Below, one piece after another: positions 2,996-31,300 of a stretch of 64,000 bases of DNA. Numbering within the stretch: the stretch's first letter is position 1; each line of letters starts with the position of its first letter. Origin of the DNA: Spizellomyces punctatus DAOM BR117 (lineage: Eukaryota); assembly GCA_000182565.2 (NCBI GenBank), contig KQ257460.1, one strand, 5' to 3'. The translations under genes were made by a program, and so were the position numbers. The notes under the pieces were generated by a model. The model did no database searches. It saw only the letters and a list, made by a program, of their open reading frames with translations, and was not told the origin of the DNA.

Positions 2996-4089
2996 CAGGC
3001 TAGCGGACACTACACAGCCGTGAAAGTTTCCGGTCCTCGGGTTCTGTGCGTGCAGCAATTCCCTTCGGGTAGGGATGTATTGCCTTGAAAAAAAAGCACT
3101 AAAAAAGAAGTGAGACTTTACACCAGCAAAGCAAGGAGCCCCTTAGCAACATCAGAAGCTGTGCCACAATATCTTCTGCACGTTGCTATGGCGTGAGTGG
3201 TCATCAGATTTGGATAGGAGAGGTCATGACCCATCCTGAACGAAGAAATTAACCAACAAGATTGGCACCCCCTCGCCGCACAGCAAATTGGTGATACTTG
3301 GGAGGCATTTAAAATACGCAGGATAAGCGATTGTCTATGGCCTTGGACATCTTGCCCGTGAACCAGCTGTGGCTCGACTAGTCACATAGTGTGGAGGTGA
3401 TGGAAAATGGCACTAAGACTCATTATTATCCGGATAATCCGGTTAATCATATCGCATAATCAGAACCCCCATCTATCGCTCAAAGCGGTGTGGCATGCAT
3501 GTAATGTTTTTTTTTTTAAAACTGTGGTGAGGCGCAAGCCAAAGGTCTATAAAACGCTGCTACTACTATGCTGCAACGATCGCAGGTATGCATTATCTTT
3601 GTATTTTCCCACGCGTATTCCCAGTCTACTTCTGATCTACCTTAGTATCTGAACATCCTCCGACTAAAGAATTTCGGAAAGTAGGATTTCTCTCGTGTGG
3701 TGGGCTTAGTTACCCGGTTAGAACAACCGTAATGTATTGCATGTGTAATTGGGCCTAGTCGTAGTTGGTTGGTTGTAAGGAAGGAATTACTTGGCTTTTC
3801 CGAACCAGTTATCGCTGGTTTATTCCCTGGTGTAGTAGCTAGTGCCATCACCTCGACACTATCTGATGAGCAGACAATGGCTTGATATCTCGAATTGGCG
3901 GGCTAATAATGTTGACCAGCCCTGGAATAAATCTCTTTCCATCTCCATCGGCCATGCCAGCGCGAAAACATAGCAATTGATAAAGATCATTCAACGTTAA
4001 TTACATACTATTGTATAATGATAAAATATCAGTAGTGACATCTAACTAGTGTATATATCTCTATGAAGTCTACGATTCTACTGTTCAAC

Positions 4090-12400: not shown

Positions 12401-13018
12401 GGGGGCCACTGGTTGTGAAGGATGAGCAAGTGGAAGGAGCTGTCAGGAGTTGCTTGGGCTGAGGGGGACATTTAAATTCAGCGCCCAACGCGCCCGACTA
12501 AACCACAGCGCGCACCAGTGGAGTCTTTGCTGTATAAATAACACAACAATCTGATAAGATGATGGACGGCATTTAGCGATGCTTTGTTGATGCATCGTAG
12601 AGATCTCAATGAAATAGTAATGTCGCAACCAATGTCGCCATTGGGTTTCGATGATCCATTACGTCCGAAAGGCAACGGTTACGGGGAAGCTCATCGCATA
12701 TAAAAATAGTCTATTCTTTAGATGTCAAGAAGCTTTGGCAAAGCCTTAATTTACAAATAGCTTCCGTGTTCCATACTTCATTTGCCTGCAAACTTCCCCA
12801 CAACCCATCAAACTCACATTCAACACTAGCTTTGTGAAAACCTGAGCACACAGATTCTCTTCTCATATACTCATCCTTTGAGCAGCCTCGCCGAATAAGA
12901 AGGACCATCTTGTCAACAGAGTAAAACCTCCATCTTTGCACATTCCTCTTCCCCAGATCTCACCGAAGCCATCTGTTCATACCGAGTGTCTAACCACTGC
13001 CTGACCTTCGATCCAAAA

Positions 13019-13633
13019 ATGACCGTCGCTCAAGCCGAATTCGAAGCGTCGGAACAGCTTGTGCAGAGCACAGGCGAGAACGACACTGAACTCAACCCCA
13101 TCGAAAGCGAGACTGAAGCGAACAATCCACCTAACGGCACAAAGACCAAAAAGCGCGCTAAGCAATCGAGAAAGAAACAGGAGAATGGGGACGGTGATGT
13201 CGAGGTCAAGGAAAAAAAGACTAAAAAGCGTGCAACGGGTACCAAACGGCAGAACAGCAGAGTCAAATCAAGGGCGGAACCCAACGATGAAGATGCGGAT
13301 AATGGCGAAGGCAACCCCGATGCAGAGAAGGCCAAAGTGGGAAATAAAGTCAGAGCCAAGGTAGGTAGGAAACACCATATCATTAAGAACCCTCCTCAGA
13401 TCTAAATAAATCACTCCCTAAAGCCATTGTCCCAAGAAGAACGCGATATCCTCGAGGACATCATGGAATCTTTGAAAGGTCCAGTTCACTGGGAGACCAT
13501 CGCCAGAAAATTCAATAGCCACTTTGGACGTACGCCCGCCCAGTTGGGCCAGTTCTGGCGAAGCCAGACGTTTAAAAAGAGACATGAAGACAGAGAACAA
13601 CAAGAAGAAAGCCCTGAGGACAGTTCGATGTAA
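13019..13633 (+). CDS. Small Myb/SANT-like domain protein, 2 exons
   Basis: A 63-nt intron at 13361-13423 joins same-frame ORFs. LSQEERDILEDIMESLKGPVHWETIARKFNSHFGRTPAQLGQFW is Myb-like. Confidence 0.65.
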
Positions 13634-13830
13634 CCAGCACATGCGAGCAAATCGTGGACAATGATTCAGAGATTTGGGCCATCGAATCATAAGACGGGGC
13701 CGGTGGACTTTGGCACTAGTACATAGATTCCAACCAATTTAATCATAATTTTACTCAATTTAGGCACATGAATCAAAATGTGAACGTTAAGATACTTTAT
13801 ATAATAATGACACTTTACATCATTGTTCTC

Positions 13831-13868
13831 GAAACACTTTGAAACACTTTGAAACACTTTGAAACACT
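13831..13868 (+). repeat. 10-bp tandem repeat (GAAACACTTT) x~4 in the left subterminal region of the Fanzor element
   Basis: gaaacacttt gaaacacttt gaaacacttt gaaacact, with degenerate caaacac copies downstream. Confidence 0.9.
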
Positions 13869-13936
13869 CCAATGCATTGGGCAAACACTTCAATAGCAGA
13901 GCTTCTGCATTCAAACACAACCTAAACATGTCTTTC

Positions 13937-14536
13937 TGTAACGACGAGGACGTCTTCGAGAGATCGCGAGTAAGCCCAAATCGGACGCGGGAAGCACGAA
14001 TCGCGTGACCAACTCCACCGATTGGGTTACCGCGACCGAAAAAACCGGTTCGGAGAATGGCAATTGGCGCATTAGATTTCAGCGTGCCTCGTACAACCTG
14101 TGGAGGCCCGAGCCAGTGCGGAAAAGGAAGAGATCGGTACCGCCACCAATAAATCAGTTGCGGTGCAGCGACACCCATTAGTTTAGTTTAGTTTAACAGT
14201 TTATCCAAGAATCTTGTATAAAAAGGATGTATTCAATAAAATAAGTCGGGGGCAGAAGCCGTAGCGACACAAAATCCCCATAACTCGCTTCTCAACTCCA
14301 ATCTTAGGTTAACAGGAACCTAACAGAGCGCTTCAACGGCCTGATCACCCGTACCGAAGCCTCTAAATCCTGCTCGGTTCACAACTAACCGACTCTCCTT
14401 GCCTCTCGCCCTCAAGTCGCTACCGACGCCCAAAGAAAGGATTTGGAGACTACGATTCCTAGTACGGACACCCACACAACCTGCTAGGAGACCCAAGTTG
14501 TCTTTACTGTAGTCTACCAACAAAAAATCCGTTACA
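13937..14536 (+). repeat. 5' LTR (600 bp)
   Basis: Direct repeat of 22228-22827 with TG..CA ends and a 7-bp terminal inverted repeat. TATAAAA near 14217 and AATAAA near 14235. Confidence 0.95.
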
Positions 14537-14551
14537 TGGTGGAGAAGCGCG
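14537..14551 (+). promoter_or_regulatory. Primer binding site, probably tRNA-Ala
   Basis: TGGTGGAGAAGCGCG lies directly after the LTR. Its reverse complement ends ...CTTCTCCACCA, the typical tRNA-Ala 3' end. Confidence 0.7.
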
Positions 14552-14691
14552 ACGAACCGCCTTCCCCTCTCAAATTCAGCTGAAAACCTTATTCGGTCGT
14601 ACCGAAACTCTTGCGCAAACCGAGATCCGCTCAGGTAGCTACTCGGAAACCTTTTCTCTCGTTTCGGAGACAGAACTTCACGAAACCGAGA

Positions 14692-17600
14692 ATGATGCCG
14701 GTCGAACGCTCACCAACGCGAGGCCGCTCACCTGTGATCCAGACTCGTAGTCAGGGTCCTGCGGAGGACGTCGAAGTCCCTCCCGCAACACGCCCAAGGC
14801 GTTCAGGGACCACTTCCGTCGAACCGGAAGCCCCTAACTTGGCCACGATGGCCTCTGAAGTGGCAGCGTTAAAAGAAGACATTGCCCGCTCGACTGCTGC
14901 AACGCAGTTGGCAACTCAAAACCTTACGGAACAGCTTCATAGGCTTTCCGAACGTCAGACAGCGGCGGATGAGCGCCTCGCACGAGCCTTAGAAGCCCTA
15001 GCGCATCGCCCGCTGCCTGAACAACCTCCCATAGCACGAGCTACAAGAGAACGGTCCGCAACCCCGTGGGAAACGGCGGACACACCAAGGGAGCGTACCG
15101 AACCAAGTTTTTCAGGTGCGGTGCCTCCAATCCAAGTGCCAGCGGCCCCGTGGGCCAGCGACACCAAGGTCGATTCCTTGAAAGCAAAGGACGTACCCGA
15201 GTTTACGGGCAGAAGAAACCAAGACGTTGAAGAATGGCTTAACAAAGTCCAACTTCTTCAAAACGTTAGCGCAACGTCGGATGCCAGGATGGTACAGCTC
15301 CTACCAGCCATGATAGCCGAGAAAACCCCTGCTGACGCTTGGTTTTACACTCTGGAAGCCCAGGAAACTCGCTCATGGACCTGGAAAAGGTGGAAAGAGG
15401 AACTGCTTCGAGAGTTCCGAGATCCCCTAACCGAGTCCAAGCGCAAAACCGAATATGTGCGCTGCCATGCGAACCCCAAAGAATTTCGCAGCTTTCTCGC
15501 GTTCATCGACCACAAAACTCATCTCCGGCGCCTCGCTTATGGCGACCGGGCAAACATAGAATGTCCCGCTGACCAGCATTTCGACCTAATAGTCGAACAA
15601 TTGCCCAGCGACATCCAAATCATGGTCAAATCCTGTAACGTCACGAACCTGACCAAATTAAAAGACTTCCTGCGCCTTTATTTCGGCTCTGATGACACCA
15701 GAAAACGAGACCCTTGCTACAGCGGTGCTGCAGAAGCTCAGAAGAAGTCACAAAAGACCGGAACCGACAAAGGCCCTAAGCAGACGGCTCCGCATAAAAC
15801 CGGAAACCCCGAAAAGGGTCGCGATGGTCCTCAGAAGATGGTTCCGGACCCCAACAAGGAACCACCGGCACCCTGCAAATTCTGTCAGAAAAAGCATTGG
15901 AATGTTTTCTGCTGGCAGAACCCGAACCGAAAAGATCCTGAAGATGGAAAGAAAGGACCATATGGAGCACCCATGCCCTCAGGTTGGAAACCCAAACAGG
16001 AATCGAAGAAGGCGTACATAGTGGAGCTGGACTCGACGTCCGCTACCACCGAGACTCTTTTTTCGGCTTCGGAACTGGAAAGAACGGAAGCCGCTAATCA
16101 AGGATTCCACACCATCGGGTTCTTTCATTCACCCAAGCACTCGGAATCAACAATTTTGATGACCGCACCTCTTTCCAAGGTCACGGTGACCAAGGAAGAG
16201 GACCCCCGCACGCCCACGCAGGGCTGGGACCGAGTCTGGGACAACATAGCCATCATCTGGGGCACCCCGCAAGTGGCTCTGATGATGGGCAACAACCCCC
16301 GCGCGCTCAGCTTCTTCGCCAAAGAACCGAAGCGAGGCGCCGGGCACCTCGGGAACGACCCCTACGCAGTCGCGTGGAGTTCCCACCACCTCTACATCGC
16401 TGCCGCAGCCGAAGCTGACAAGGATCGAATCCTGCGAAAGGTCCGAGAAGACGGTACCCCTCGTTTGATTCTCCTTGCCTGGATAAAGCTCGACGAGCGC
16501 GAGAAATTCTTGATGTGGAGCTCTGAAGATCCTGTTATCTTTGATGCGTACGCCAACCTGCAACTGGTGGCATTTCTCCTGACAGGCAATATCGTTCGCT
16601 CAGACTATTATTATCGTCGCGGAAACCCCAAATTTCGGCACGTTAAAGACCATCCACGTCTCCAAAGACACGAAGAGAGCGAACGGACGCGTATAGTCAT
16701 GCTGGCTATCGAACAAGTTGCTCGCCAGAATAAAACAACAAAACCACAAAACGACAAAACTAGAGAACACTTTGAGAGTGTGATCAAGGCTACGGAAGCA
16801 ACAATTAACGACATCGCGCCCCATTTCGAGATCGCGGTGCCTTCTATCAACGCCTTCTACTCAGTAGATTTAGGCGATGTACTCAAAAGCCAGACTAAGA
16901 CCCAAACGCAGCCTTGCTGGACGCTAGCCGTCATCGCGCAGCTCTGGGCACCTGTGGTACTAGACACAGGGGCCTGCGAGTCTCTGATTTCCGACACGTA
17001 CCAAGGCCTTCTGTTCTCCGAAACCGATTTGCAGGATGCGGAAACGATGGCTTTCAACGGCATTGGTGGACGTATCTCATCTACCAAGACAGTATGCCTC
17101 GAAACTTCCCTCAGAGGCCGCGGCGGAGAATACCTGACTTTCCGCGCCTACTTTCGGGTCATCGCGTACGGGAAACCTCTCATCATCCTAGCCAACGACG
17201 TTTTGGGACATTTGAAACTCCAAACCTTGGTTCAGGAACCCCCGTTACCCAGTTTCGCGGTGACGCTCAAGAATCCAGACATCCTTATCCCCTGCTCCAT
17301 AACGGATGAGCTGGACACCGATCACATGCGCGGCACGCCATACAAGACCAAGCAGGGTGAATTCATGAAGGATGTGTCAATGCCACGGCTGACCAAAGCC
17401 AAAGCTCAGAAGTCTAGATTAACCATGTTAATCACGGGACAGACGCGCGTGGCAGCCCAAACTTTTCTCATCGAAAACCCTCTTGAGGCCACCGCTGCTA
17501 GCTCAACGGTCCCGTTAGGCCTCAAACTGTCCACCGCGACCCATAATTCGGTTGCGGACCCCGAAGAGAACATTTCCAAAGAAGAATGGCAGACACTTCG

Positions 17601-20600
17601 GAACAAATGGAACCTCGACTCTACGGAGAGGGCTCCAGGGGCCTTCGAAGCCCAATTAAAAGACGCGGAACGTTTCCACGTCGATCTCAAGCGACCCAAA
17701 CCCGTGGTCTGGGCCCTAATCAACATTCTACGACACTTCCATCAAGCCTTCAGCTATGAGGGTCATCTCATAGGGAACTACACCAAGATTCCTTATGCGC
17801 CTCGATTTATCTCGGCTCCGCCACCCCTTTCGAGGCCACGGTCGTACTCTCCGTTGGAGCGGACAGCCCTCGAGACGGAGCGAGACACCATGATGGGGCT
17901 TCAGAGGTGGAAACGAACCACCGAAGTAACCTTCGCCAGCGATCCTGTTATCATTCGCTATGCAGACAAACCCCCGCGCGTAGCCTTCGACTATCGCCGA
18001 GCCAACGACTGCATGGCCTGGGATCCATATCCCTTTCCCATCATGCTCGACATCCTGAACTGGATCGTCGCAGTCCCATTCCGATACATATCGGGAGGTG
18101 ACGCAAACAAAGGATTCTACCAAATCGCCATCACCGATGCGTCGGTACGCAAATGGCTCGCGCTCAGACTCCATGACGGCATCTACGAACCACTCTTTAT
18201 GCCCTTCGGACCCAAGACTGCCCCCTCGCACTTCTGTCGGGTGATGGACGACACCTTGGGTCCCTCCAAATGGCGAAATATCAACAACTTCGTCGACGAT
18301 ATCCACACACGAGTGGAGACAGCCGCGGAAGCCCTAGACGCCATCGCGGACTGGCTCGACCGCTTTTCCAGAGCCAAACTCACCCTAAGACTCGACAAGT
18401 GTCAATGGCTCTTTCACCAGCTCACGGCCCTCGGTTTCGTTGCCTCCTCTCAGGGTCTCGCTACCGATCCAGACAAGGTCGCAACCATAGTCGATTGGCC
18501 ACAACCCAAATTCATAGGTGACCTATGGTCATTCGTGGGTCTCCTAGGGTTCTACGCCCAATTCATTTCTCGCTACGCGGAACTCGTCCGACCCCTGCAA
18601 GACGCTATCCAAGAGGGCGTTCGCGAATACCGAGACCTTAAAAAGGGTCGCGCTGACCCGAAGAAAGGCGCTGAAAAGCTCAATTCACCATCCATGCTCG
18701 ACACGGCGGTGGCCCCTACAATCACAGCCACCGGAGCCCGATTTGAGGTTTCGCAACATCCGAAATCTAGCTCCTCAGACCTACCGGCGGTCAATCTACG
18801 CCAATCATCGCTGGCGGACTTACCCATTGACCCCTTTTGTGTCGGACGCCTTGCTCGCAAGCGCCCCGACCAAGGTCTGCGCAGATTTATCGCGAAGCGT
18901 GAAGTTTCATGGACCGATTCCCGAAACTCTGCCTTCGCAGCCGCCAAGCAGGCTCTGACAACAGCTCCAGTGCTCGCGGCACCCAGAAAAGGGTTCCCCT
19001 ACACCCTTCACAGTGACGCTTCCTACACAGCGTTTAATGTCACGCTCGAACAGTTACAGCCGGATGCTTCTAAACGCCCGCTGTGCTACCATTCCCGAGG
19101 CACCACCACCTCGGAAAAGAAGGCCCCCCCCGTCGAACTCGAGGCCGGATGCCTCATTTGGGGCCTCGGAAAACTCCGCCCATACCTCGAAGGCCTGCCT
19201 TTCACGGTCATTACCGATCACCGAGCTCTTTTGTGGCTCGCCAAATACAAAGGCGAGAACCGAAAGCTCCTCCGCTGGGCCCTCGATCTTAGTTACTGGT
19301 CCGAATGGATGACAATCGTACACAAACCAGGACGCTTCCACATAGTCGCTGATACACTTTCGCGGCTACTTGGCGCGGAAACTCTTCTTTGCTCTACCGC
19401 GACCGAAATATGGGTGTCGGAACGCAAAGGACGACGGCCGCGCACCCCGCCAGCCGGTCCCGCACCCTCCTCAACACTGGCAGATGCCATCTTTCGTTTG
19501 GCGTTACAGCCCGCACTCATCACCGCCATCCGCGCTGGCCTCACCGGCCCGCTCCACCCCATCGCCCAACAGGCCCGCACCCTTCTATGGGAGACCAGCC
19601 CCGACACGTACACTACCGCCGACACGCGCTTTCTTCAGGACTGGCAACGTGCAGATAACCTGCTGTGGCACCGTTTTTCAGTCTCCGAAGACCTTTGGCG
19701 CCTTTACGTGCCCCCTGCTTGCACCCCTGAGGTGCGCAAGCTTTTTCACGAGGGGGGAGGACACTTCGGATTCGAAAGAACCTACGCTAGAGCTGCAGCG
19801 CAAGTCTGGTGGCCGAAAATGGCACAAGATTTCAGAAAACACTGCGCAGGATGTGAAACCTGTCAACGCTCAAAAAGGGTACCGCAACTGATTCCGGGGT
19901 TGCTGAAACCCATACCACCAGCTCCGGGACGCTGGACAGTCATCACGACTGACTTCGTAACCAAGCTCCCACTTACTTCCAGAGGGTACGACGCCTTTTG
20001 GTTAATAGCATGTAAATGCTCAAAGAGGATCCACGTATGGCCCCTCAAGAGCACTGCGACAGCTATTCAGGTCGCGGAACTCTTTATAGAGCGCTACGTC
20101 CCATTGCACGGCATCCCGGAGACCATTATCTCGGACCGCGACTCCAAATTTACGAGTCGATTTTGGCAGGAGGTCTGCAAAAACCTAAAGATTAATCAAG
20201 AGCTCACCACAGCCTACCACCCTCAAGGTGATGGACAATCAGAAAGAGACAACGCAACGGTCTTGCAGGTCCTTACCACAATGGTCAACACCCGATTAGA
20301 TGACTGGGACACCTTTCTTCCGGTTGCGGAATTCATTATCAACGATACGGTACACGAGGCGACAAAAATGACGCGATTCAGAATGGACCTAGGCTATGAG
20401 CCCCACAATCCACTGGCGGACATCGTCGAAAGGCCGTCAGAAACCAGAAATGCAGATGCGGAGGAGCTCTGTAAACACCTCGGCGACCTAAACATCCTTA
20501 TCCGAGATCTGATGATCGAAGCCCAGGATTCGCAGAAAAGATATTACGATTTATCGCGACGACATTTGGAGTTCCGGAGAGGAGATAAGGTGCTTCTGAG

Positions 20601-22170
20601 CACGAAAAACCTAGCAGGGTATGAGTCCAAGATCGCTCCGAAATGGCTGGGACCAGTCACGGTGACCGACTGTAACCCTCTCCGCGACAACTACGAGTTA
20701 AAACTGCCAGACAAGATGAGACGACTTCATCCATGGTTTCACATATCGAAATTACGTCCGTACCAGAAGCCTGTCGACGCCGAAACTGAGGAAAAGGTCG
20801 CGGAAGCACAAGCGGAGGATTCCGACGCTTCAGATGGCGAGTTTGAAGTGGAAGCGATAGTAGACCATCGAACCAGGCGCGGAAAACGTCAATTTCGAAT
20901 ACGTTGGTCCGGATACCCACCCCATGAGGATACCTGGGAACCAGAGGAAGCCCTAACAGAGGCTTCCGAAGCCTTAGAAGAGTACTGGAGATCCAGAGCT
21001 CCCACTAGCGCGCTAGTAGAGGACTCTTTGGTAGTCAGCCTTGCAGGCGACGCCCCGGAAGATACGGCTTATGCTTCCGACCACCAATGCTTCGCGGTTT
21101 ATCCGGACGATAGCTCACGTGATAATCACGCCCTCTCACCAGAAAGAAAACCAGTTTCGCGTGGCTTACCTCACCAGTCGAGAACGCCACACCAAGCCTC
21201 CCGATCACGCTTACGCGCGTCCGAGCTGTCAAAATCAGCCGGCGACGACCTTAAAAGGACGCCCCTGCACGCTCCCCCTCTTTTTTCTTCTTCAACCGCC
21301 CACGACCTACTTCCCTTACACACTCACTCTGCTTCGCAAACCCCTTCTATCGACACCGAAACTAAAACTTCCATTTCTAACACAATGAACACCGATCTCA
21401 GAGGACAAGCAGGAGTGAGCGTACCCTCCACGTACATGTCCGGCTACCCTTGGGAGGAAGACTCGGGCGACTTCGAGGCCGAGGGCGTGCTGGATCGCCT
21501 TGGGGTTGCGATCGCTACCTGGGTTCACTCCTGGGTTCATCAGCTTCGGACCAACCCCAACGCGCCGCTGCAGACTCCAGGGCATGAGTTTTGGCTGGGA
21601 GTCGACGCTCCGAAACCTTACGCGGTGGGCCAGCCCCTCACAAACCACATCGCGGACCCCTACAGCAAGGCCACCGATGGTGGTGAAGCAGCGGTCGGAA
21701 TAGTTGCTGACGCGAAAAAACCCGGAAAAAGAGGGCGCCCAGCTCCGTGCGCCGCTTGGCTCGACCGCGGGGTTCCCCAACACGAGGCGGGAAGCCGAAA
21801 AACGGCTCCGTTCACCGATTGGCCGAACGACGACGCCCACGAGTTTGCGTCCGCCGTCATTGAAGCAGCTAGGACGGTGCTCCTAAGGACGGCGAACGCA
21901 GCGGAAGCCTCTGCAAGGCTCACCAGACCCCGACATCACGAGCACGCGGAGTACCATTTCCGCGCGACAAACCTGAAAAGGGCCGCGGAGACCTTTACGG
22001 CCCTCTACGTAACCAGAACTGGCCCCGACGTGACCCCGGGTACCATCGTTCGTACCGCAACAGATCAAATCTGGTTTTGTTGCAACGTCGGTGGCCGTGC
22101 CAGTATCATCTGGGTCGTGAACCAAGATGCAGATGAAGCGGACCCCACAGATCCGGTACCGACCTGGTAA
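14692..22170 (+). CDS. Gag-Pol polyprotein (Gag, protease, RT, RNase H, integrase, chromodomain, plus extra domains)
   Basis: Uninterrupted ~2490-aa ORF. It contains a CKFCQKKHWNVFC knuckle, LDTGA protease (~16960), MPFGPKTAP/FVDD RT (~18290), SDAS..ELE..TDH RNase H, an H..GH..CxxC plus TDFVT..SDRD..GQSER integrase, and the chromodomain FEVEAIVDHR..RWSGYPPHEDTWEP (~20840-20990). Confidence 0.95.
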   Translation: MMPVERSPTRGRSPVIQTRSQGPAEDVEVPPATRPRRSGTTSVEPEAPNLATMASEVAALKEDIARSTAATQLATQNLTEQLHRLSERQTAADERLARALEALAHRPLPEQPPIARATRERSATPWETADTPRERTEPSFSGAVPPIQVPAAPWASDTKVDSLKAKDVPEFTGRRNQDVEEWLNKVQLLQNVSATSDARMVQLLPAMIAEKTPADAWFYTLEAQETRSWTWKRWKEELLREFRDPLTESKRKTEYVRCHANPKEFRSFLAFIDHKTHLRRLAYGDRANIECPADQHFDLIVEQLPSDIQIMVKSCNVTNLTKLKDFLRLYFGSDDTRKRDPCYSGAAEAQKKSQKTGTDKGPKQTAPHKTGNPEKGRDGPQKMVPDPNKEPPAPCKFCQKKHWNVFCWQNPNRKDPEDGKKGPYGAPMPSGWKPKQESKKAYIVELDSTSATTETLFSASELERTEAANQGFHTIGFFHSPKHSESTILMTAPLSKVTVTKEEDPRTPTQGWDRVWDNIAIIWGTPQVALMMGNNPRALSFFAKEPKRGAGHLGNDPYAVAWSSHHLYIAAAAEADKDRILRKVREDGTPRLILLAWIKLDEREKFLMWSSEDPVIFDAYANLQLVAFLLTGNIVRSDYYYRRGNPKFRHVKDHPRLQRHEESERTRIVMLAIEQVARQNKTTKPQNDKTREHFESVIKATEATINDIAPHFEIAVPSINAFYSVDLGDVLKSQTKTQTQPCWTLAVIAQLWAPVVLDTGACESLISDTYQGLLFSETDLQDAETMAFNGIGGRISSTKTVCLETSLRGRGGEYLTFRAYFRVIAYGKPLIILANDVLGHLKLQTLVQEPPLPSFAVTLKNPDILIPCSITDELDTDHMRGTPYKTKQGEFMKDVSMPRLTKAKAQKSRLTMLITGQTRVAAQTFLIENPLEATAASSTVPLGLKLSTATHNSVADPEENISKEEWQTLRNKWNLDSTERAPGAFEAQLKDAERFHVDLKRPKPVVWALINILRHFHQAFSYEGHLIGNYTKIPYAPRFISAPPPLSRPRSYSPLERTALETERDTMMGLQRWKRTTEVTFASDPVIIRYADKPPRVAFDYRRANDCMAWDPYPFPIMLDILNWIVAVPFRYISGGDANKGFYQIAITDASVRKWLALRLHDGIYEPLFMPFGPKTAPSHFCRVMDDTLGPSKWRNINNFVDDIHTRVETAAEALDAIADWLDRFSRAKLTLRLDKCQWLFHQLTALGFVASSQGLATDPDKVATIVDWPQPKFIGDLWSFVGLLGFYAQFISRYAELVRPLQDAIQEGVREYRDLKKGRADPKKGAEKLNSPSMLDTAVAPTITATGARFEVSQHPKSSSSDLPAVNLRQSSLADLPIDPFCVGRLARKRPDQGLRRFIAKREVSWTDSRNSAFAAAKQALTTAPVLAAPRKGFPYTLHSDASYTAFNVTLEQLQPDASKRPLCYHSRGTTTSEKKAPPVELEAGCLIWGLGKLRPYLEGLPFTVITDHRALLWLAKYKGENRKLLRWALDLSYWSEWMTIVHKPGRFHIVADTLSRLLGAETLLCSTATEIWVSERKGRRPRTPPAGPAPSSTLADAIFRLALQPALITAIRAGLTGPLHPIAQQARTLLWETSPDTYTTADTRFLQDWQRADNLLWHRFSVSEDLWRLYVPPACTPEVRKLFHEGGGHFGFERTYARAAAQVWWPKMAQDFRKHCAGCETCQRSKRVPQLIPGLLKPIPPAPGRWTVITTDFVTKLPLTSRGYDAFWLIACKCSKRIHVWPLKSTATAIQVAELFIERYVPLHGIPETIISDRDSKFTSRFWQEVCKNLKINQELTTAYHPQGDGQSERDNATVLQVLTTMVNTRLDDWDTFLPVAEFIINDTVHEATKMTRFRMDLGYEPHNPLADIVERPSETRNADAEELCKHLGDLNILIRDLMIEAQDSQKRYYDLSRRHLEFRRGDKVLLSTKNLAGYESKIAPKWLGPVTVTDCNPLRDNYELKLPDKMRRLHPWFHISKLRPYQKPVDAETEEKVAEAQAEDSDASDGEFEVEAIVDHRTRRGKRQFRIRWSGYPPHEDTWEPEEALTEASEALEEYWRSRAPTSALVEDSLVVSLAGDAPEDTAYASDHQCFAVYPDDSSRDNHALSPERKPVSRGLPHQSRTPHQASRSRLRASELSKSAGDDLKRTPLHAPPLFSSSTAHDLLPLHTHSASQTPSIDTETKTSISNTMNTDLRGQAGVSVPSTYMSGYPWEEDSGDFEAEGVLDRLGVAIATWVHSWVHQLRTNPNAPLQTPGHEFWLGVDAPKPYAVGQPLTNHIADPYSKATDGGEAAVGIVADAKKPGKRGRPAPCAAWLDRGVPQHEAGSRKTAPFTDWPNDDAHEFASAVIEAARTVLLRTANAAEASARLTRPRHHEHAEYHFRATNLKRAAETFTALYVTRTGPDVTPGTIVRTATDQIWFCCNVGGRASIIWVVNQDADEADPTDPVPTW

Positions 22171-22217
22171 TTGACGTCCCAACACCCCCGCTCGGAGCGC
22201 CGGTGCGTTGGCTCTTC

Positions 22218-22227
22218 AAAGGGGGGA
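22218..22227 (+). promoter_or_regulatory. Polypurine tract
   Basis: AAAGGGGGGA immediately before the 3' LTR. Confidence 0.85.
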
Positions 22228-22827
22228 TGTAACGACGAGGACGTCTTCGAGAGATCGCGAGTAAGCCCAAATCGGACGCGGGAAGCACGAATCGCGTGAC
22301 CAACTCCACCGATTGGGTTACCGCGACCGAAAAAACCGGTTCGGAGAATGGCAATTGGCGCATTAGATTTCAGCGTGCCTCGTACAACCTGTGGAGGCCC
22401 GAGCCAGTGCGGAAAAGGAAGAGATCGGTACCGCCACCAATAAATCAGTTGCGGTGCAGCGACACCCATTAGTTTAGTTTAGTTTAACAGTTTATCCAAG
22501 AATCTTGTATAAAAAGGATGTATTCAATAAAATAAGTCGGGGGCAGAAGCCGTAGCGACACAAAATCCCCATAACTCGCTTCTCAACTCCAATCTTAGGT
22601 TAACAGGAACCTAACAGAGCGCTTCAACGGCCTGATCACCCGTACCGAAGCCTCTAAATCCTGCTCGGTTCACAACTAACCGACTCTCCTTGCCTCTCGC
22701 CCCCAAGTCGCTACCGACGCCCAAAGAAAGGATTCGGAGACTATGATTCCTAGTACGGCCACCCACATAACCTGCTAGGAGACCCAAGTCGTCTTTACCG
22801 TAGTCTACCAACAAAAAATCCGTTACA
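22228..22827 (+). repeat. 3' LTR (600 bp)
   Basis: Direct repeat of 13937-14536 with 7 substitutions counted by eye. Confidence 0.95.
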
Positions 22828-22873
22828 TCTGCCCATTTCCCAGGCTTTCATCCATTTTTCTATTCCAATCATC

Positions 22874-24760
22874 ATGCCACCAAAGAAGAAGCAAAAATTC
22901 GACAATCGACCTACCTGTCTGCATTCATGCAACAAGACTTCCTTTGCAAAGGCTTTCTTACCTAATGGGACCTACCGGCAGCGTCTTCTAGATTACATCG
23001 CCATCATCCATCAACTCGCCGACCATGCTTCCCACGCGCTGAAATTCTATCTCCTTTCAGCACCAACCTTTCCCACGGTAAATGAAGATACAATCGAAGC
23101 GATTCTCTATCTTCTCAACAAGGGGGAGGCTTGGCATCCAAGAAAGGAAGCAAAGAAGGCATGGCGGGATTGTTTGCTGCCATATGTTCAACGGTACTGC
23201 CAAATCATCGGCTTTGTTCACCCAAATCTACGAGGCGAGCAGCAATCAGTCAATTACCTGACAGCGAGTATGATGACGAACCTGAAAGTCAACGTTCAAG
23301 AGCATTTCATGCAGATGCTCCTTCGGTATATCAATCTGCGGCTTGACATGAAGGGACAGAAGCAGCAACTGCCACCTAAAAGCAATGTGCGAAAGGATTT
23401 CTTTGCTCGTCTTCGCTACTTGAAGTCAATTTTCCTTTTTGATATTGTGCCCGAGTCACTCGATGACTTGACCGCTGAAGAGAGTGAGCTTCTAGAAGAG
23501 ATGTGGTCCTTCATTCCCCTTTCTGACAACCAGCCGCTCGCATATTCGGTTGCTGTAGACCCTCTTGCCTTCTTTCCTGCATACTGCAAACTCTCTGGGC
23601 TGTATGAACGACATGGATTTCGACAGTTCAGTGCAATCCCTCTTCATCGGTCTCTCATCCAAAGCCATGTGCAAATCGACACCATCGTTCTCTACCAGCA
23701 TATCCTTTGCATCACACGAAGAGAAGCGGAAACTGTCGAAAAGGTCAATTTATGGTTGCGCGTCTGTAATCTACGTACCAAAGCTTTTCGGTCTCGCCGC
23801 GGTATGCAGTTTGAAGGCTTGATCATGACGGATGGGACCTCGGTGTCTGTATACCTAAAGCACCCAGGAGCAGACAAGTATGGAAAGCGTGGAGCGAGAA
23901 AGTCAGCAAAGAGTTTAGAGGACGAAGTTAAAGCGCAATACATGGAGAAAAACTTACCTGCTTGTCGAGCAGCAGAGAATGTCATCGTTATCGACCCAAA
24001 CAAGCACGATATTCTCTACTGCCAAGACAACAGTGGTATGACATTTCGCTACACCACCAACCAGCGAGCCGTGGAGACTGGAAGCCGTCGACAGCAAAGG
24101 CAATGGCAGCAGATGAAGAAAGAAGCTGGAGTTGACCTCATAGAATCACGAATACCAAGCCAGAAGATGATGAATCTCATAGACTTCATGCGTTACCTTC
24201 TTGTTCGCCGCGCTGATTGGGATCGTCGAAAGGAGTTCTACTCCCACCCTGCTCATACTAGATGGAAATGGCACGCATTCATAAACCGTCAGAAGAGCGA
24301 ATCAGACCTCATATCCAACATGCGCAACAAGTACGGCGAAAACTTCACCATTGTGATGGGTGATTGGAGCGACGCCAGTCGAACTGCGAGATTTCAGACC
24401 TCATCAAAGACGAAAGGTTGGCGCACCCTCTTTAAGCGGAACAGGATCAACTGCTTCCTTCTCGATGAGTACAAGACCTAATCTGTCTGCCCTCGCTGTT
24501 TGGCCTCATCTGATGACTTCCTTGAAAAGGACTTCAAAACACGACCTCATTCAAGACCTTGGCGCCGTCGCGAAGGCAAGATTGAAAAAGTCCACGGATT
24601 GCTGGGTTGTACCAACCCTAACTGTCAGCAAGCCTGGACGATGCGCTACTGGAACAGGGACACGCTGAGCACCTGCAACATGCTGATGATCGTGCAATCA
24701 ATGTTAGATGGACACGGTAGACCAGAGGTGTTCAACAGGAGTGTTCCAGGTGTAGTGTAG
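22874..24760 (+). pseudogene. Fanzor1 RNA-guided endonuclease (SpuFz1-like) with one premature stop
   Basis: MPPKKKQK NLS, RuvC-I VIDPN, VMGDWS, RuvC-II LLDEYKT, then TAA at 24479-24481. The same frame continues with SVCPRC...GCTNPNC zinc finger and RuvC-III WNRD to TAG at 24760. Closely matches the published Spizellomyces punctatus Fz1 as recalled. Confidence 0.92.
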
Positions 24761-24773
24761 ATTGGTTAGATTA

Positions 24774-24865
24774 GGTTTTCCGAGCCGGTTGTCGCGCGGT
24801 TCAATCCCTGGTGCGGGTGCTAGTGCCAATACCCATCGGCTCCGCACTAAGACGGGTTGGCGGAG
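24774..24865 (+). ncRNA. Fanzor omegaRNA (scaffold to ~24849, flank-derived guide after it)
   Basis: GGTTTTCCGAGCCGGTTGTCGCGCGGTTCAATCCCTGGTGCGGGTGCTAGTGCCAATACCCATCGGCTCCGCACTA. GAGCCGGT pairs with ATCGGCTC and there is an inner GGGTG..TACCC stem. It overlaps the right TIR. Confidence 0.85.
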
Positions 24866-25074
24866 AGAGCTGAACCATCTATTTTGTGTATTGATTGTGT
24901 ATAGCATAGCTAGTTTTCTGCCTTTTCTCTCATAATAACATGAGATGTTTTTTTGCATGATCAAACCAAAAGTAGTAGCTGTGAGCTTCTCCCTCTGTTC
25001 TTTGCACACGCTGGAAATGCTGCCAATGCTGTCGTCTCCTTTCCATCACGCCGACATGCGGTGCATAACGTCTC

Positions 25075-25176
25075 GAATTTGGCATGACGCAGGTCTAACC
25101 CCCCAGCAATGAACAAAATCCTCCAGAATTTGGAATGACGCAGGTCCAACCCCTCAGCAATGAACAAAATCCTCCA
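25075..25176 (+). repeat. 51-bp tandem duplication (2 copies)
   Basis: gaatttggcatgacgcaggtctaaccccccagcaatgaacaaaatcctcca is repeated at 25126 with 3 mismatches. Confidence 0.9.
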
Positions 25177-25771
25177 ATACAAAGAAACAATTACCATTTG
25201 CCATTGGAGTCAACGCGGGAGCGGGTCCACAGCACACACATTAATAATTACGTTCGTCGTAAGATCGGAACCTTCGAATCTGAAACGAACAAGACGATAA
25301 ACAGCTTGTCATAACTTGCCGTCCTACCGGCAACCGGTAAACGCTTCTAGGCCAGTTGCAACTTGCCACGTTCAAACGCTTTTCAATTTGGTAAATTGTT
25401 TGAAGACCCAAATATACTCAAGTTATTCCGCATCCGCCTGTTGCAATGGATTTGCTAAGCCCTCCGACAATTGGAGGGGGAAGATCGCTGGACATTTCAT
25501 GCGCCTTTTTATTTTTATTTCCGGGCTTCCGAAGGTTTGTTCAAGACAAAACACATACTTTGACAAATAGATTTGCAACAAGAATACAAGAGTTCTAGCG
25601 GCGGAAAAACTATCGTTCTCGTTTTTGTTCCATGCAAAGGTTCTTGTATTGGTTATAAAAGCAAAGGATTGAAGTGCTCCCCCCTAGTATGATAAAACCA
25701 TCAAAACAATACATTGCATTCAAACAAATAAAATACGGGATACTTGACGAAGATCACATAAACCATAAAGT

Positions 25772-27804
25772 ATGCCGCCAAATTCCAAAATCTCTGATGA
25801 GCACCTCTCCATCAATGTCACCGACACGGACATCCCTACACCAAACCGGGGCGGCTCCCTATCCTGGAATAATGTCACTTACTCGATTGATCTGAAGACA
25901 AAGGACGATAACGGTAAACCAAAATCGCGGACGCTGCTGTCTGATGTGTCGGGTGAGGCCAAGAGAGGGGAGTTGGTTGCGATCATGGGAAGTAGTGGAG
26001 CTGGCAAAACGACGCTTTTAAACTGGTAAGTGATGACTTTTTTTTTTCTGACCGATGGATTTTTTTGAACTGACATTGTTGGTCCTACAGCCTCTCTGGT
26101 CGCTTGGGTACAGGTCACCTAAGTGGAAGCGTCACGCTCGATGGGCGTCCACGGAACCGGAAAACCTGGAAAAAACTCGTAGCCTTTGTTGAACAAGACG
26201 ACCAAATGTATAGCAACATCACCGTCCGCGAAACCATCAATTACGCTGCCCGCCTCCGTCTGTCATCCTCCCGATACGCTAAAGCTGAAAAAGCTTCTCT
26301 CACAGACGATGTTATCAAATCCCTTCGCTTATCCAAAGCCAAGGACACCTATATTGGTGATGGATTGACACGTGGTGTGAGTGGAGGTGAACGGAAGCGA
26401 ACAGCCATTGCCCAAGAGTTGGTGGGAAACCCCGAGATTCTGTTCCTGGATGAGCCGACGAGTGGACTAGATTCCAATTCGGCGTACGCCGTCCTTGAAA
26501 ATGTCAAAGCCGAAGCGATCCGAACTGGACGTATCGTCATCTTGACTATCCACCAACCCTCCAATGAAATTCTCTCGCTGTTGTCAAAGGTGGTGCTGTT
26601 GGCCGGTGGGTCGACAGTATTTTTCGGCCCAGTCGAAGATGCTTTGACGCATTTTGCGTCGCTGGGGTATACCTGCCCTGCACGGAAGAATCCTGCCGAC
26701 TTTTTCCTCGACTTGCTGACGATCGATGAGGAAACTCACGAAGAGGACACAGCGCGGGTCAAGAAGCTACAAGAAGCCTATCGACAGCTGGACCAGTCGA
26801 ACGTCCCCGTCACACACCCCTCTGAGCCAAAAATCTCTATGACCGTCTCTTTGGACGCCCTACCAGGAGATTCACCAGAACCAGCAGCGGGCTGGTCCAA
26901 CAACTGGTTTACAGAATTCCTTATCCTATTCGAACGCGCCTGGTTGGATGTGTTGAGATCCAAACCTGTAGTGATCGCCTCCTTTGTTCGAACGGCTGTC
27001 CTCGTTATTCTCATTGGGTTCGCGTTTTGGCAACTGGATAAGGACCAACGTGGGATTCAAAACAGGGCTGGAATTCTGTTCCTTTGGCCCATTAACCAAG
27101 TTTTTGTCACCATCCAACCTATTGTCGCAACTTTCCCCCTCGAACGTGTCATCATGCTCCGAGAACGGTCCGCGGGATCATACCGAGTATCCTCATTCTA
27201 CATTTCCAAAGTACTCTCCCAAGCGATTCCCGCCGTATTTTACTCCATGTTGGCATGTGTACCACTTTACTGGATGATAGGCCTTCAACATTCAGCATGG
27301 AAGTTCTTTGCCTGGCTGCTTATCAATGCCTTAGAGACAACAGCAGCAGTTGCGTTGGGTTTCATGGTCTCGAGCGGTGTTGAAACAGTACAGATGGCGA
27401 TGGCGGTTGCTCCGATGATCGCGGTTGTGTTTTTGCTATTTGGTGGAAACATTATCAATAATGGGAGTTTGGGCTGGTGGTTCAAGTGGTTGCACTACGT
27501 ATCACCCATTGGATGTGAGTATCTTCGTGGCTCTCTTATATGGCTTTACTCTTTTCTCACACCTTTTTCAAAATTAGACGCATACCGATCTTTTATGCAG
27601 CTCGAATTCCGAGGTCTCAGCCTTTCCTGCCAACCTGACGAACCTTGCACACCCACCGGTGAACTTGTCCTGCAACAACAAGATCTGAACGGGCTCTCTG
27701 TATGGGCATGTGCAGGAATCTTGGTGGCGTTGAGTACATGGTGGTTCTTGACAGGCTATGTGTTGTTAAGGAAAACGTCCAAGCCGAAAATGAAAGTCTT
27801 GTGA
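25772..27804 (+). CDS. ABCG (White-family) half transporter
   Basis: Walker A GSSGAGKTT, VSGGERKRT signature, LFLDEPTSGLD, TIHQP, NPADF and a C-terminal TMD. Introns at 26026-26090 and 27515-27577. Confidence 0.95.
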
Positions 27805-28059: not shown

Positions 28060-31000
28060 CTATCCAAGCCCAACAGCCAACGCCTCTTGCACCTTGCGAC
28101 TGCTCTTTAACAAACTCAAGCTGTCCACTCCAGATGCATGTCCCTCCTTCTTTACCCTTCTTTCCAGCACGTCCTCTCGGTCCTTTTTTCTGGCTTTCGG
28201 CTCACCGGTATGAACCCTCTGCAAATGCCCACCGACCCCTCTCAAAATCTCTCTCAAGATTCTAATTTGGTCTCCCTTGGTATCCATGCTTTGTATGCAC
28301 TGCCGGAGCCGGTCACCCAATGCTCGGAGTGTCGGTGGTGGGGTGGGGTTGGTCGTCGTCTGGGCGGCGGCACTGTCGTATTTTTGAACAAGCGTGTGAT
28401 AATGTCTAGAGGAAAGATACGTCAGGCCAACCACAAAATAAAGAAAGCGACATCGTAAAAGGGTGCACACCTTTTCAACGCTTCAAATTCTTCCTCCAAT
28501 CCCTTCAACACCTTTTTCAAAATTTCAACTCCACCATCAGTGCTCAGCATCTCGTCATGAAAAGAAGCGTGATCGTCCCATGGTTCACCAAGAGTTTGTG
28601 TAGATTTTCCTGTGGTGTGTGGTTGATCGGTTGGTTTTACGGTACGGTGAACAGTGATTTCATCCTTGTCCTTTTGAGGCTTATCCCGTCGACTGCAGAC
28701 GGAGCATAATGCCGGGTTATGAGCTTTGAGTAGGGAGAAGACTCTTTGAATGTTGGCTGTTACAGAATACGATTTCGACGTGCTCTGCGAGTCAGCCAAG
28801 GAGACATGTCAATGAGGCCATCTGACCGGGTAACCCAAGCTCAGTAGCATACCGTTCCAATAATAAAGGGCATTTGCCTGCCTCCGACAACTCCCTTGAC
28901 GACCCCCCGCTCATCTTTCGATCCATGTGTGCAAAATAAAGTTCCATTTCGCGGGGGAGACTTGATGACGACTCGAGGTTTGATTCCTGATGTGGGCACG
29001 AGCTTTTGCCGAGGTCGGCCAATCTCAATTTTCTTCCAGACGGGATTGACTCCGTCCCTCGTGTGCTGAGTCGTAACCTATGTAAACTCGATACAATAAG
29101 CAACCCATCTCTCTCGGCAAGTAAAACCTCGGATTCATACCTTTCTCTCCCCCTTTCTAACCTCAACCTTCCCATTCCTCCCCAAGCGCACCTGCCCAAC
29201 AACCAGCTTCCTCAGCCTGTCACGATCCTCTCGAGAGACCCGACCTCCATCGTGATTCAATCTTTCAACACGTTCTCGTTCGATTTCCTTTTGGAGCGCG
29301 TCGATTTCTTCCGGGTGGAGGAAGCTGTCTTCAGTGAGGGAAGGGGCATCCGAACGGATTGAGCGGCTGAATAAGTCGGTTGACGGAGGTCGAGTTGGGG
29401 AGGGTTTACGCGGAGAGACTGATTTGGGTCGGGTAGGAGAAGGGTTACGTTTGGAGGGAGATGCGCGGGTTGAGGACCGTTGAGGCGAGCGTTTGTCCTG
29501 ATGGGAGCGTTGGGGAAGTGGATTGGAACGTTGAGGCGACGCTTGCTGTCTTCCAGTTAATTTTGTATCATGGGTCGCGGTCCTAACCTCCTCTTTCACA
29601 CCATCATTCAATACCCGGGCTTGATCGACCTTTGCCTGCTTCCCATCACCATCCTGAGTTGATTCCATAGCTCTCTTCAATTCTTTCACTTCCCTCCTAG
29701 CAGCCTCCAACTGCTCAACCACCCTATTTCTTTCCAGCTCGACTTCCAAAGCAGTCTCCTTGGACCGCTCTAGCTGCCTCTGCAAAATCTCTGACCGCAT
29801 TTTAAGCGAATGAAGCTGGTTCTCAATTTTAAGCTGGTCCAACAGGTCCTTGTCAGGAATCTGACTATGGAGGTCGCTTCCAATGTCAATTTTCTTGGTT
29901 TCCACATGTTTAGCTGAATGACTCTCTTTCAATCGCCCCTGCTCGAACAGGACAAGGCCCCTAGTCCTAGTCAACTCGTCCTCCAATTTTGCAATCTTTT
30001 CCTTCGCGGCGACCTTTTCGCCTTCCAGCTTCCCAACACGCTCTTGTAACGTTCGTAATGCATTTACCACGGCGCGAGTATTGCTATCCTCCGGGACGTT
30101 GACAAGCGGTAAATGACGATGGATGCCATCAAAGGGATCACTGTAGCTGGGGACCGTGCGAAATGTCGGAGTGACATCGTCTAGGATATCTGCCATGGAC
30201 ATGCGCAAGCCAGAAGGGAGCTCAACAGGTGGGGAAGCAGGCCCTGTCCCTCCAGGCAAGAGATCCAGCGAAGAGGGCGATCGCGGCGTGTCTTCACCAA
30301 GCACATCACGATGCACTGCTCGATGCTCAGCTTCAACAGGAGCAGAGCCCTGAAAAGGATCATTCTCGTCTGATCTGGACTCTGCACGTATGTGCTCCGG
30401 AAAAGAAGGCTCTGCAAAGGAAATCGATACCCCGGGTTTGATTGGAATATTATCGCTCAGGCGGGAAAAAGATCTCGGTGGCTCGCGGGTTGGAGATTGG
30501 GAGAGCCGGTACTGCTGGATACTTGGGGACGAGCTCTGCGGTGAGAACCGCGGTAGCGGACTACGCGATACGCCTCTTCGAGACTCGTTATTTATGTTCG
30601 AATCTGGCGCCTGCATAAATTCCTCCTTCACGACAACGTGGGACCTCGCAGTGCTTTTCGGCGACTCTCCAACCGTCCGCAAATCTGGAGACGGCGTACG
30701 GATTCTCATAGTACCCATTTCCATCTCTAAGCCTTTCACGCCCTCGTCATCAAATGGCGATCCCCCTCGCTCAAACTCTAAAACACTCTCCTCATCAATG
30801 GTTTTGACGCCTGCATCATCATACAGAATAGGAGAAGACCCAGCACTCCTTCCCTCAGATCGATAAAAGTCCCGCTCCACATCGCCAATCTCGCGCTCAA
30901 TGAGTTTGCTAAACCTATCGCCCCCATAGCTCGCCTGGCGTTCAACGTCGAAGGATAGACTGAACCCGTTGGAGAAATCATGGCCAGCCGTTCTGTGTGT

Positions 31001-31300
31001 TCCAAACTCTTCGCGGAGCTCGCGTTCCATTTGTTCAATAAGGGCATTAGGGTCGTCTGGGAAGGTGTCGGGGTTGAACGAACTGTGCAACGTGGTTAGG
31101 TCGCGACTCTCCGCTAGTCGATCTGGAAAGTGTGTTATATTGGCTTTTCCAGTATGGAAAGGCGCACGAAAGCACATGCCGGAAACAAACCTACCACTCT
31201 TTTCGTCCTTTCCAAAATTCACTTCTGCAAATACTTCATCCAATTGGAGATCCCTCGAAAGGGAATCCATAAAACTTTGCAAACCCTCGGAGGCCGACAT
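28060..31300 (-). CDS. CEP57/Ppc89-like centrosome/spindle-pole coiled-coil protein, multi-exon
   Basis: RAVVNALRTLQERVGKLEGEK (Cep57 localisation-domain-like), HNPALCSVC, and the C-terminal LRQCIQSMDTKGDQIRIL (Cep57 microtubule-binding-like). Confidence 0.7.

Follow-up and report, generated by a model that had tools for sequence, protein, structure and literature searches.

The window analysed here, a stretch of 64,000 nucleotides (nt) from contig KQ257460.1 of the Spizellomyces punctatus DAOM BR117 assembly (GCA_000182565.2), contains between positions 13688 and 24865 one genomic copy of the SPu-1 transposon, which carries a Fanzor1 (Fz) gene of the SpuFz1 type and has been disabled by a premature stop codon and by a nested retrotransposon; we put the probability of this reading at about 0.93. 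According to the available part of PMC10432273, the nuclease of an intact copy is a TnpB-like RuvC protein, and approximately 75 nt at the right end of the element are transcribed, together with 14-15 nt of flanking DNA, as its guide RNA (omegaRNA). Intact SpuFz1 nuclease and right-end RNA together cut double-stranded DNA in which the target-adjacent motif (TAM) CATA is followed by a match to the guide (PMC10432273, same part). The copy in the window is a disabled member of this family, not a non-member. All features of the element given below are on the plus strand.

The Fanzor1 open reading frame (ORF) as it stands (22874-24481) is comprised of 535 codons, ends with a premature TAA at 24479-24481, and covers the WED and REC domains and most of the RuvC domain, including D374, N376 and E532. 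The former 3' part of the ORF (24482-24763) is open in the same frame, encodes the zinc-finger cysteines C539, C542, C579 and C584 as well as D596, and ends with a TAG at 24761-24763; the frame of 628 codons thus contains one internal stop. The 628-aa product of 22874-24763, with an X placed at this stop, is referred to as the read-through protein. When compared with the PDB sequences, it matched over residues 2-627 the chain 8gkh_P, a Fanzor of S. punctatus fused to maltose-binding protein (E=0, 1204.6 bits), followed by the Parasitella Fanzor1 PpFz1 (E=2.5e-44); eight sequences were found at E<=10, of which those ranking after the two Fanzors were weak and unrelated. The 638-aa protein SPPG_07727 (P0004) matched the Fanzor part of 8gkh_P over residues 2-638 (E=0, 1493 bits), and the window copy shares 525 of 641 aligned positions with it (82% identity). 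Homology to SpuFz1 therefore extends over the full length of the read-through protein.

The preliminary description, made from the letters of the window, had reported a Fanzor1 gene with an omegaRNA and a TAM inside an element with terminal inverted repeats, and an ORF with three RuvC motifs, a zinc finger and, at its N-terminus, a signal for nuclear localization. Each of these protein features was recovered at its place in the read-through protein: the RuvC motifs IDPN (D374, N376), DEY (E532) and NRD (D596), the zinc-finger motif CxxC...CxxxxC (C539, C542, C579, C584), and PPKKKQK near the N-terminus. D374 and N376 align with D383 and N385 of SpuFz1, E532 with E541, and D596 with D606, while all six residues that contact the TAM (R90, Q123, Q124, N127, R282 and Y336) are kept in the window copy; the roles of the catalytic and TAM-contact residues of SpuFz1 are described in PMC10432273, as far as its available text goes. 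At the level of the read-through protein, the four zinc-finger cysteines are also conserved in the alignment with relatives.

Forty-three proteins from a large protein collection, including the window's own 535-aa ORF, were found at E<=1e-20. Sixteen of them are named as Spizellomyces punctatus DAOM BR117 and show 78-87% identity; all relatives with a named source and at least 78% identity (16 of 16) come from this strain. The remaining 26 comprise eleven proteins of Fimicolochytrium jonesii, one of Rhizophlyctis rosea, and 14 unnamed or generically named proteins from ENA, Logan and JGI. A precomputed label, PF26935.1, is attached to 42 of these 43 proteins; it is absent from the copy of Pfam that was scanned.

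The left inverted repeat (13690-13719) is 30 nt long including its TA, and is degenerate: when the right repeat (24820-24849) is reverse-complemented, the two agree at 22 of 30 positions, and the eight mismatches include the three bases that follow the TA. Both repeats carry the TA at their ends, and a CA precedes the left one, an organization that corresponds to the published repeats of 30-33 nt. The motif CATA at the left junction (13688-13691), noted already in the preliminary description, is comprised of this CA (13688-13689) and of a TA (13690-13691) that is either the start of the left repeat or the TA target-site duplication, and it corresponds to the published TAM of SpuFz1. Cleavage of double-stranded DNA that depends on CATA and on the guide was shown for SpuFz1 in PMC10432273; what the window has of it are the CATA of the left junction and the kept TAM-contact residues. 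When both strands of the window were scanned for the repeat with up to nine mismatches, only the two ends of the Fanzor element and the left end, at 3387, of a second element were recovered; since the scan gave no stray matches, the pairing of the repeats is not due to chance. This second element (3387-3861, approximately 475 bp) is an ORF-less 'ghost' Spu-1 element with CATA at its left junction (3385-3388) and a TA at either end, and it has an inverted-repeat version of its own. The right repeat of the Fanzor element differs from the left repeat of the ghost at 7 of 30 positions; seven differing positions between Fanzor and ghost repeats are also given in the available part of PMC10432273.

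Reads from other copies also bear on the left end. In the RNA run X19, 107 reads have loose ends before 24820 that correspond to the reverse complement of 13720-13738, with one difference in the consensus, and one contig of X1 has a loose end at the same place that is identical to the reverse complement of 13720-13735. These loose ends represent the left ends of other copies, so that the sequence from 13720 onward is family sequence and the left end of the window copy is genuine; in those other copies, the left repeat is at least 95% like the right repeat of the window copy read in reverse complement. The 5' non-coding part of SPu-1 up to the retrotransposon (13720-13936) accordingly begins with 19 nt of conserved left-end sequence. 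Within this part, four overlapping 10-nt units (GAAACACTTT; repeat family D6) are found at 13831-13868.

At the right end, the TAG of the Fanzor frame is followed by 11 nt and then by a 75-nt segment (24775-24849) that corresponds to the scaffold region of the omegaRNA, the last 30 nt of which form the right inverted repeat with its terminal TA. The predicted fold of the segment (-27.4 kcal/mol) consists of two stem-loops, and the hairpin loop of the second has 8 nt. According to the available text of PMC10432273, the canonical omegaRNA has a stem 2 with an 8-nt hairpin loop, and in the omegaRNA of PpFz1, according to the partly available PMC11423790, stem-loop 1 has 7 bp and there is one stem-loop 2 only; the two-stem shape at 24775-24849 agrees with the published description of the omegaRNA. 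The corresponding region of the ghost copy is 76% identical over 63 nt, and all eight base pairs of stem-loop 1 are kept between the two, with one compensatory and two one-sided changes. The segment is followed by 15 nt (24850-24864) in the position of the guide, which are single-copy. The available part of PMC10432273 describes the SpuFz1 RNA as 88-90 nt long, composed of a 75-nt scaffold and a 14-15-nt guide; the window copy has the same arrangement of an approximately 75-nt scaffold that ends at the right repeat, with a variable flank behind it. The omegaRNA or repeat sequence does not occur as text in the available part of PMC10432273, and a 23-nt pattern taken from the right repeat had no match in a metagenome scan.

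This boundary is visible in the reads. In the chromatin immunoprecipitation (ChIP) DNA run X20, whose 38-nt reads were placed at 95% likeness, the depth is approximately 280-315 per strand group in 24762-24838 and approximately 4 beyond 24916, and thus falls to the single-copy level past the repeat. Loose ends lie directly behind 24849 in 151 reads of X19, in 25 reads of X20 and in three contigs of X1, with a low mutual agreement (0.48-0.57). As reads diverge directly after the TA at 24848-24849 in three runs, conservation stops abruptly there. The start of the block common to the copies (approximately 24771-24849) is marked by 141 RNA reads with loose ends before 24771. The preliminary description had placed a structured non-coding segment of about 75 nt at this end, closed by the right repeat, and had expected the segment to be conserved among copies with a sudden drop after the TA; both expectations are borne out, and with the protein match, the scaffold boundary, CATA and the paired repeats, its identification of a Fanzor1 gene, omegaRNA and TAM in an inverted-repeat element stands. 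Its further implication that the right flank belongs to the terminal repeat was dropped, as the likeness of the start of the left repeat to this flank is direct, not inverted.

The stop codon was examined in an alignment with 19 relatives (P0002-P0020). A residue is present in the stop column in 12 of the 19, and because it is a serine in all 12, codon 536 is, judged from this alignment, a TCA that has changed to TAA (Ser to stop). The encoded 535-aa product has D374 and E532 but not D596, which lies in the DNA behind the TAA, so that its RuvC triad is incomplete; it also has no zinc finger, the cysteines of which are located downstream of the stop and are conserved only in the read-through protein. 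Since the truncated product is without the zinc finger and the third catalytic aspartate, the locus is not a working system. By ending the protein ahead of both, the TAA leaves the window copy unable to produce the nuclease. The 8.9-kb Ty3/gypsy element described below parts the left end and some of the 5' region from the Fanzor gene, and drift has changed 8 of 30 positions of the left repeat, the three outermost bases among them. We infer that this copy is nuclease-dead and no longer mobile. By inference only, an omegaRNA that intact paralogs use in trans might still come from its right end, a role of guide donor that is proposed for ORF-less ghost loci in the available part of PMC10432273.

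The nested element is a Ty3/gypsy retrotransposon of the chromovirus type with long terminal repeats (LTRs), located at 13937-22827. It accounts for 8.9 kb of the 11.2-kb interval and lies in the 5' non-coding region of the Fanzor element; 46 nt of residual SPu-1 5' region (22828-22873), with a DNA read depth several-fold higher than that of the single-copy flank, separate its 3' LTR from the Fanzor start codon. Two LTRs of 600 nt each (13937-14536 and 22228-22827), of the form TG..CA, enclose a single 2519-aa gag-pol ORF (14611-22170); the 5' LTR is followed by a TGG resembling a primer-binding site, and the 3' LTR is preceded by a purine tract. The Pfam matches in gag-pol are in the order reverse transcriptase (RVT_1, 1160-1276), RNase H (RT_RNaseH, 1434-1561), integrase (1700-1871; Integrase_H2C2 and rve), SH3_Tf2-1 and Chromo (2078-2127). 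The chromovirus is apparently intact. Neither this element nor the degeneracy of the left repeat had been spelled out in the preliminary description. The approximately 390 aa that follow the chromodomain (2128-2519) have no Pfam match.

Several observations weigh against the interpretation of the interval as a disabled SPu-1 copy with its gene, scaffold and two original ends, and they are considered here together with the alternatives on which they bear. The search of Pfam-A with the read-through protein gave no match to the TnpB/OrfB family at E<=1; of the alignment to SpuFz1 and TnpB profiles proposed in the preliminary description, the part concerning SpuFz1 succeeded and the part concerning the Pfam TnpB family did not. 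Taken formally, the refuting condition set in the preliminary description, the absence of a profile match, thus holds for Pfam, but the direct match to a protein of solved structure outweighs it. Two other Pfam-A matches of the read-through protein, TOM20_plant and UPF0172, were rejected as unrelated and sub-threshold. Rfam gave no match in 13000-26000 on either strand at E<=1, and the fold energy of 24775-24849 is unremarkable (z = -1.82; 6 of 200 shuffled sequences were as good). X19 covers the scaffold, but largely with RNA from other copies placed at 95% likeness, as seen from the loose ends at 24771, 24820 and 24849. No pile-ups of read begins or ends are listed for this run. In the scaffold bin its two strands stand at 126 and 50, a split that is not readable, because the right repeat also collects, in reverse orientation, reads from the left ends of other copies. 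The search of sequencing runs listed no RNA run with matching sequence, and none of the contigs of X24, presumably an RNA run, was placed on the window.

To the same side belongs the read evidence for the stop codon, since among the 98 reads of X20 over position 24480 the A of the stop is present in only four and C in the other 94, with 38-nt reads that cannot separate the paralogs from the window copy. The four reads with A fit, if thinly, a single copy carrying the stop among many copies that carry C. If the C were taken at face value, the locus could be an intact, active Fanzor system in which the TAA is an assembly or sequencing error or is read through, and in this respect it is of note that the frame remains open for 92 codons past the stop with all motifs kept and that none of the 19 paralog-invariant positions after the stop is substituted. 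The 94 reads with C are explicable by the many paralogs that map to this position, four independent reads do carry A, a number near the single-copy depth of approximately 8 reads in the unique flank, and the retrotransposon and the degenerate left repeat would persist even with an intact ORF; we consider an intact system extremely improbable.

Decay of the coding sequence was measured by counting substitutions at the positions on which seven full-length paralogs are unanimous, the paralogs being taken in turn. The window copy has 13 unique substitutions at 349 such positions, compared with 5-17 in the paralogs, and by this measure it is no more decayed than copies that are intact, which is a further point against a disabled copy. 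As it is not unusually decayed, the stop codon is probably recent, or else the sole coding lesion. Approximately 11 of the 13 unique substitutions (22874-24478) are of a single C-to-T or G-to-A type (e.g. three changes from T to M, and changes of R to Q or H, of D to N and of G to S), and these substitution types suggest decay of the deamination kind.

The remaining points against the preferred interpretation concern the retrotransposon. A target-site duplication of 4-6 bp was absent at its borders, where the flanks read CTTTC and TCTGC, and the left end may have an origin other than that of the Fanzor gene, with which it now forms one element. The two LTRs differ at seven positions, six of them transitions; all seven fall within 14412-14508, in the last 125 nt, and the first 475 nt are identical. 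The missing duplication and the clustering of the LTR differences leave room for a recombinant history, in which two copies of the LTR retrotransposon, sitting at separate sites, recombined and so brought the left end (13690-13936) together with the Fanzor gene and the right end, and in which the two inverted repeats were never part of one insertion. Such a chimera would also account for the mismatch of the repeats at 8 of 30 positions, and for the approximately 291 nt that are found upstream of the ATG when the retrotransposon is subtracted; an element of 2.1 kb whose ORF takes up 1.9 kb has less room than that. Both ends are tied to one site, however, by TAAGACGGG, the register of which is the same in the right flank as at the left end, and the orientation of the ends and the CATA junction are as expected of a single element. 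A chimera is thus unlikely, and we retain a single SPu-1 insertion, later interrupted by the retrotransposon, as the preferred interpretation.

The sequence TAAGACGGG deserves separate treatment. It occurs at 13690-13698 and at 24848-24856 as a perfect 9-nt direct repeat in one register, such that the 7 nt after the left TA (13692-13698) recur as the opening 7 nt of the right flank (24850-24856), which is single-copy. The chance of a 7-nt identity at a fixed register is approximately 6e-5, a figure to be read in the light of the identity having been noticed after the fact. According to the loose-end consensus, the right flanks of other copies start differently, and only the TA is common to the two junctions of the ghost element. 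The outermost 7 nt of the window's left repeat are not those of the family, the left ends of other copies being the reverse complement of the right repeat. Possible explanations are chance, a 9-bp duplication upon aberrant insertion, a short conversion tract at a heterology border, or a repair scar.

In the case of an aberrant insertion, TAAGACGGG would be a 9-bp target-site duplication made by an element without the outer 7 nt of its left repeat. The match is perfect and in one register, and the remaining left repeat would then differ from the right one at only 4 of 21 positions; against this, the ghost junctions share the TA only, a TA duplication is the published one for SPu-1 in the available part of PMC3627910, the two termini would lie 7 nt out of step, and the CA ahead of the TA would have to be put down to coincidence. 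We regard a 9-bp duplication as very improbable. Quite improbable, too, is a repair scar left by omegaRNA-guided homing. A Fanzor would here have cut the empty site, consisting of CATA and this flank, some 16-21 nt in, after which the sister copy would have served as the template for restoring the element; trimming of the cut protospacer's 3' tail would have been only partial, back to a short CGG microhomology, with the result that bases of the flank replaced the first bases of the repeat. If true, the 7-nt identity would be a trace, left in nature, of transposon retention driven by a Fanzor in a eukaryote, something that has been proposed but hitherto not demonstrated. It is one loose thread, and would be important only if the same junction scar recurred genome-wide.

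Outside the Fanzor element, a 51-nt unit is duplicated in tandem at 25075-25176 (94% identical), approximately 230 nt downstream of the right end. Eight further ORFs of at least 250 aa in the window were searched against Pfam, and none of them is a transposase; three of the eight have a match, and these neighbours are ordinary host genes for an ABC-2 type transporter (26104-27804), a Cep57-like protein (29135-31300) and an ATP-grasp protein resembling IQCH (58005-59384).

Much of what the interval contains has been described before. The available part of PMC3627910 (Bao and Jurka, 2013) gives SPu-1 as an element of approximately 2,100 bp with 33-bp terminal inverted repeats, putative TA duplications, a 633-aa protein and 17 full-length copies. 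For the strain DAOM BR117, the available text of PMC10432273 (Saito et al., 2023) counts 42 Fanzor loci (19 full, the rest with partial genes) and 134 ghost loci, and mentions eleven Fanzor loci whose repeats enclose additional genes, among them Gypsy/Ty3 elements upstream of, downstream of or inside the Fanzor gene. The same part reports approximately 82% identity among the S. punctatus copies, a SpuFz1 element with 30-nt repeats and a CA upstream of the 5' repeat, and a SpuFz1 protein with a CATA TAM and a solved structure. The family, the nuclease, the omegaRNA, the TAM, the copy number and the architecture with a nested Ty3 element are therefore already in print at the level of the family and the genome. 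The preliminary description had held that this copy and its architecture may be undescribed; as the 82% identity to SpuFz1 equals that reported among the copies of the species, and as eleven loci with additional genes are mentioned in the same partly available source, this suggestion finds no support. The locus is of little importance in itself: it files as a degenerate copy of SpuFz1, and the useful result is the negative one.

Among known systems, SpuFz1/SPu-1 (PDB 8GKH) is the closest. The two belong to the same family and very probably to the same genome, with 82% protein identity, the same catalytic and TAM-contact residues, the same repeat with TA and CA, and an omegaRNA scaffold at the same position and of the same two-stem shape; the kind of Ty3 insertion seen here is reported for some loci in the available part of the literature. 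In contrast to SpuFz1/SPu-1, the window copy has a stop at codon 536, a retrotransposon on its 5' side, a left repeat that is off at 8 of 30 positions, and 7 nt of left repeat that equal the right flank. The ghost Spu-1 elements resemble it in having a right end with the omegaRNA scaffold and no working nuclease gene, but they are, as far as the available description goes, only approximately 0.5 kb long, have no ORF at all, and differ in the sequence of their repeat (at 7 of 30 positions) as well as in stem 2. PpFz1 of Parasitella parasitica (PDB 9CF0; Xu et al., 2024, PMC11423790, available in part) is likewise a Fanzor1 with the same domain order, matched in two stretches at E=2.5e-44, although its sequence is distant and the protein is much longer. 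A further comparison is with ISDra2 TnpB, of the IS200/IS605 group of OMEGA systems, to which no sequence-level match was seen in the Pfam-A and PDB searches of the read-through protein. Like the Fanzors, it is an RNA-guided RuvC nuclease with a guide RNA from the right end and a TAM in the left flank (PMC10432273, available part), whereas it is bacterial, belongs to an element without inverted repeats or TA duplication, and has the transposase TnpA as its partner.

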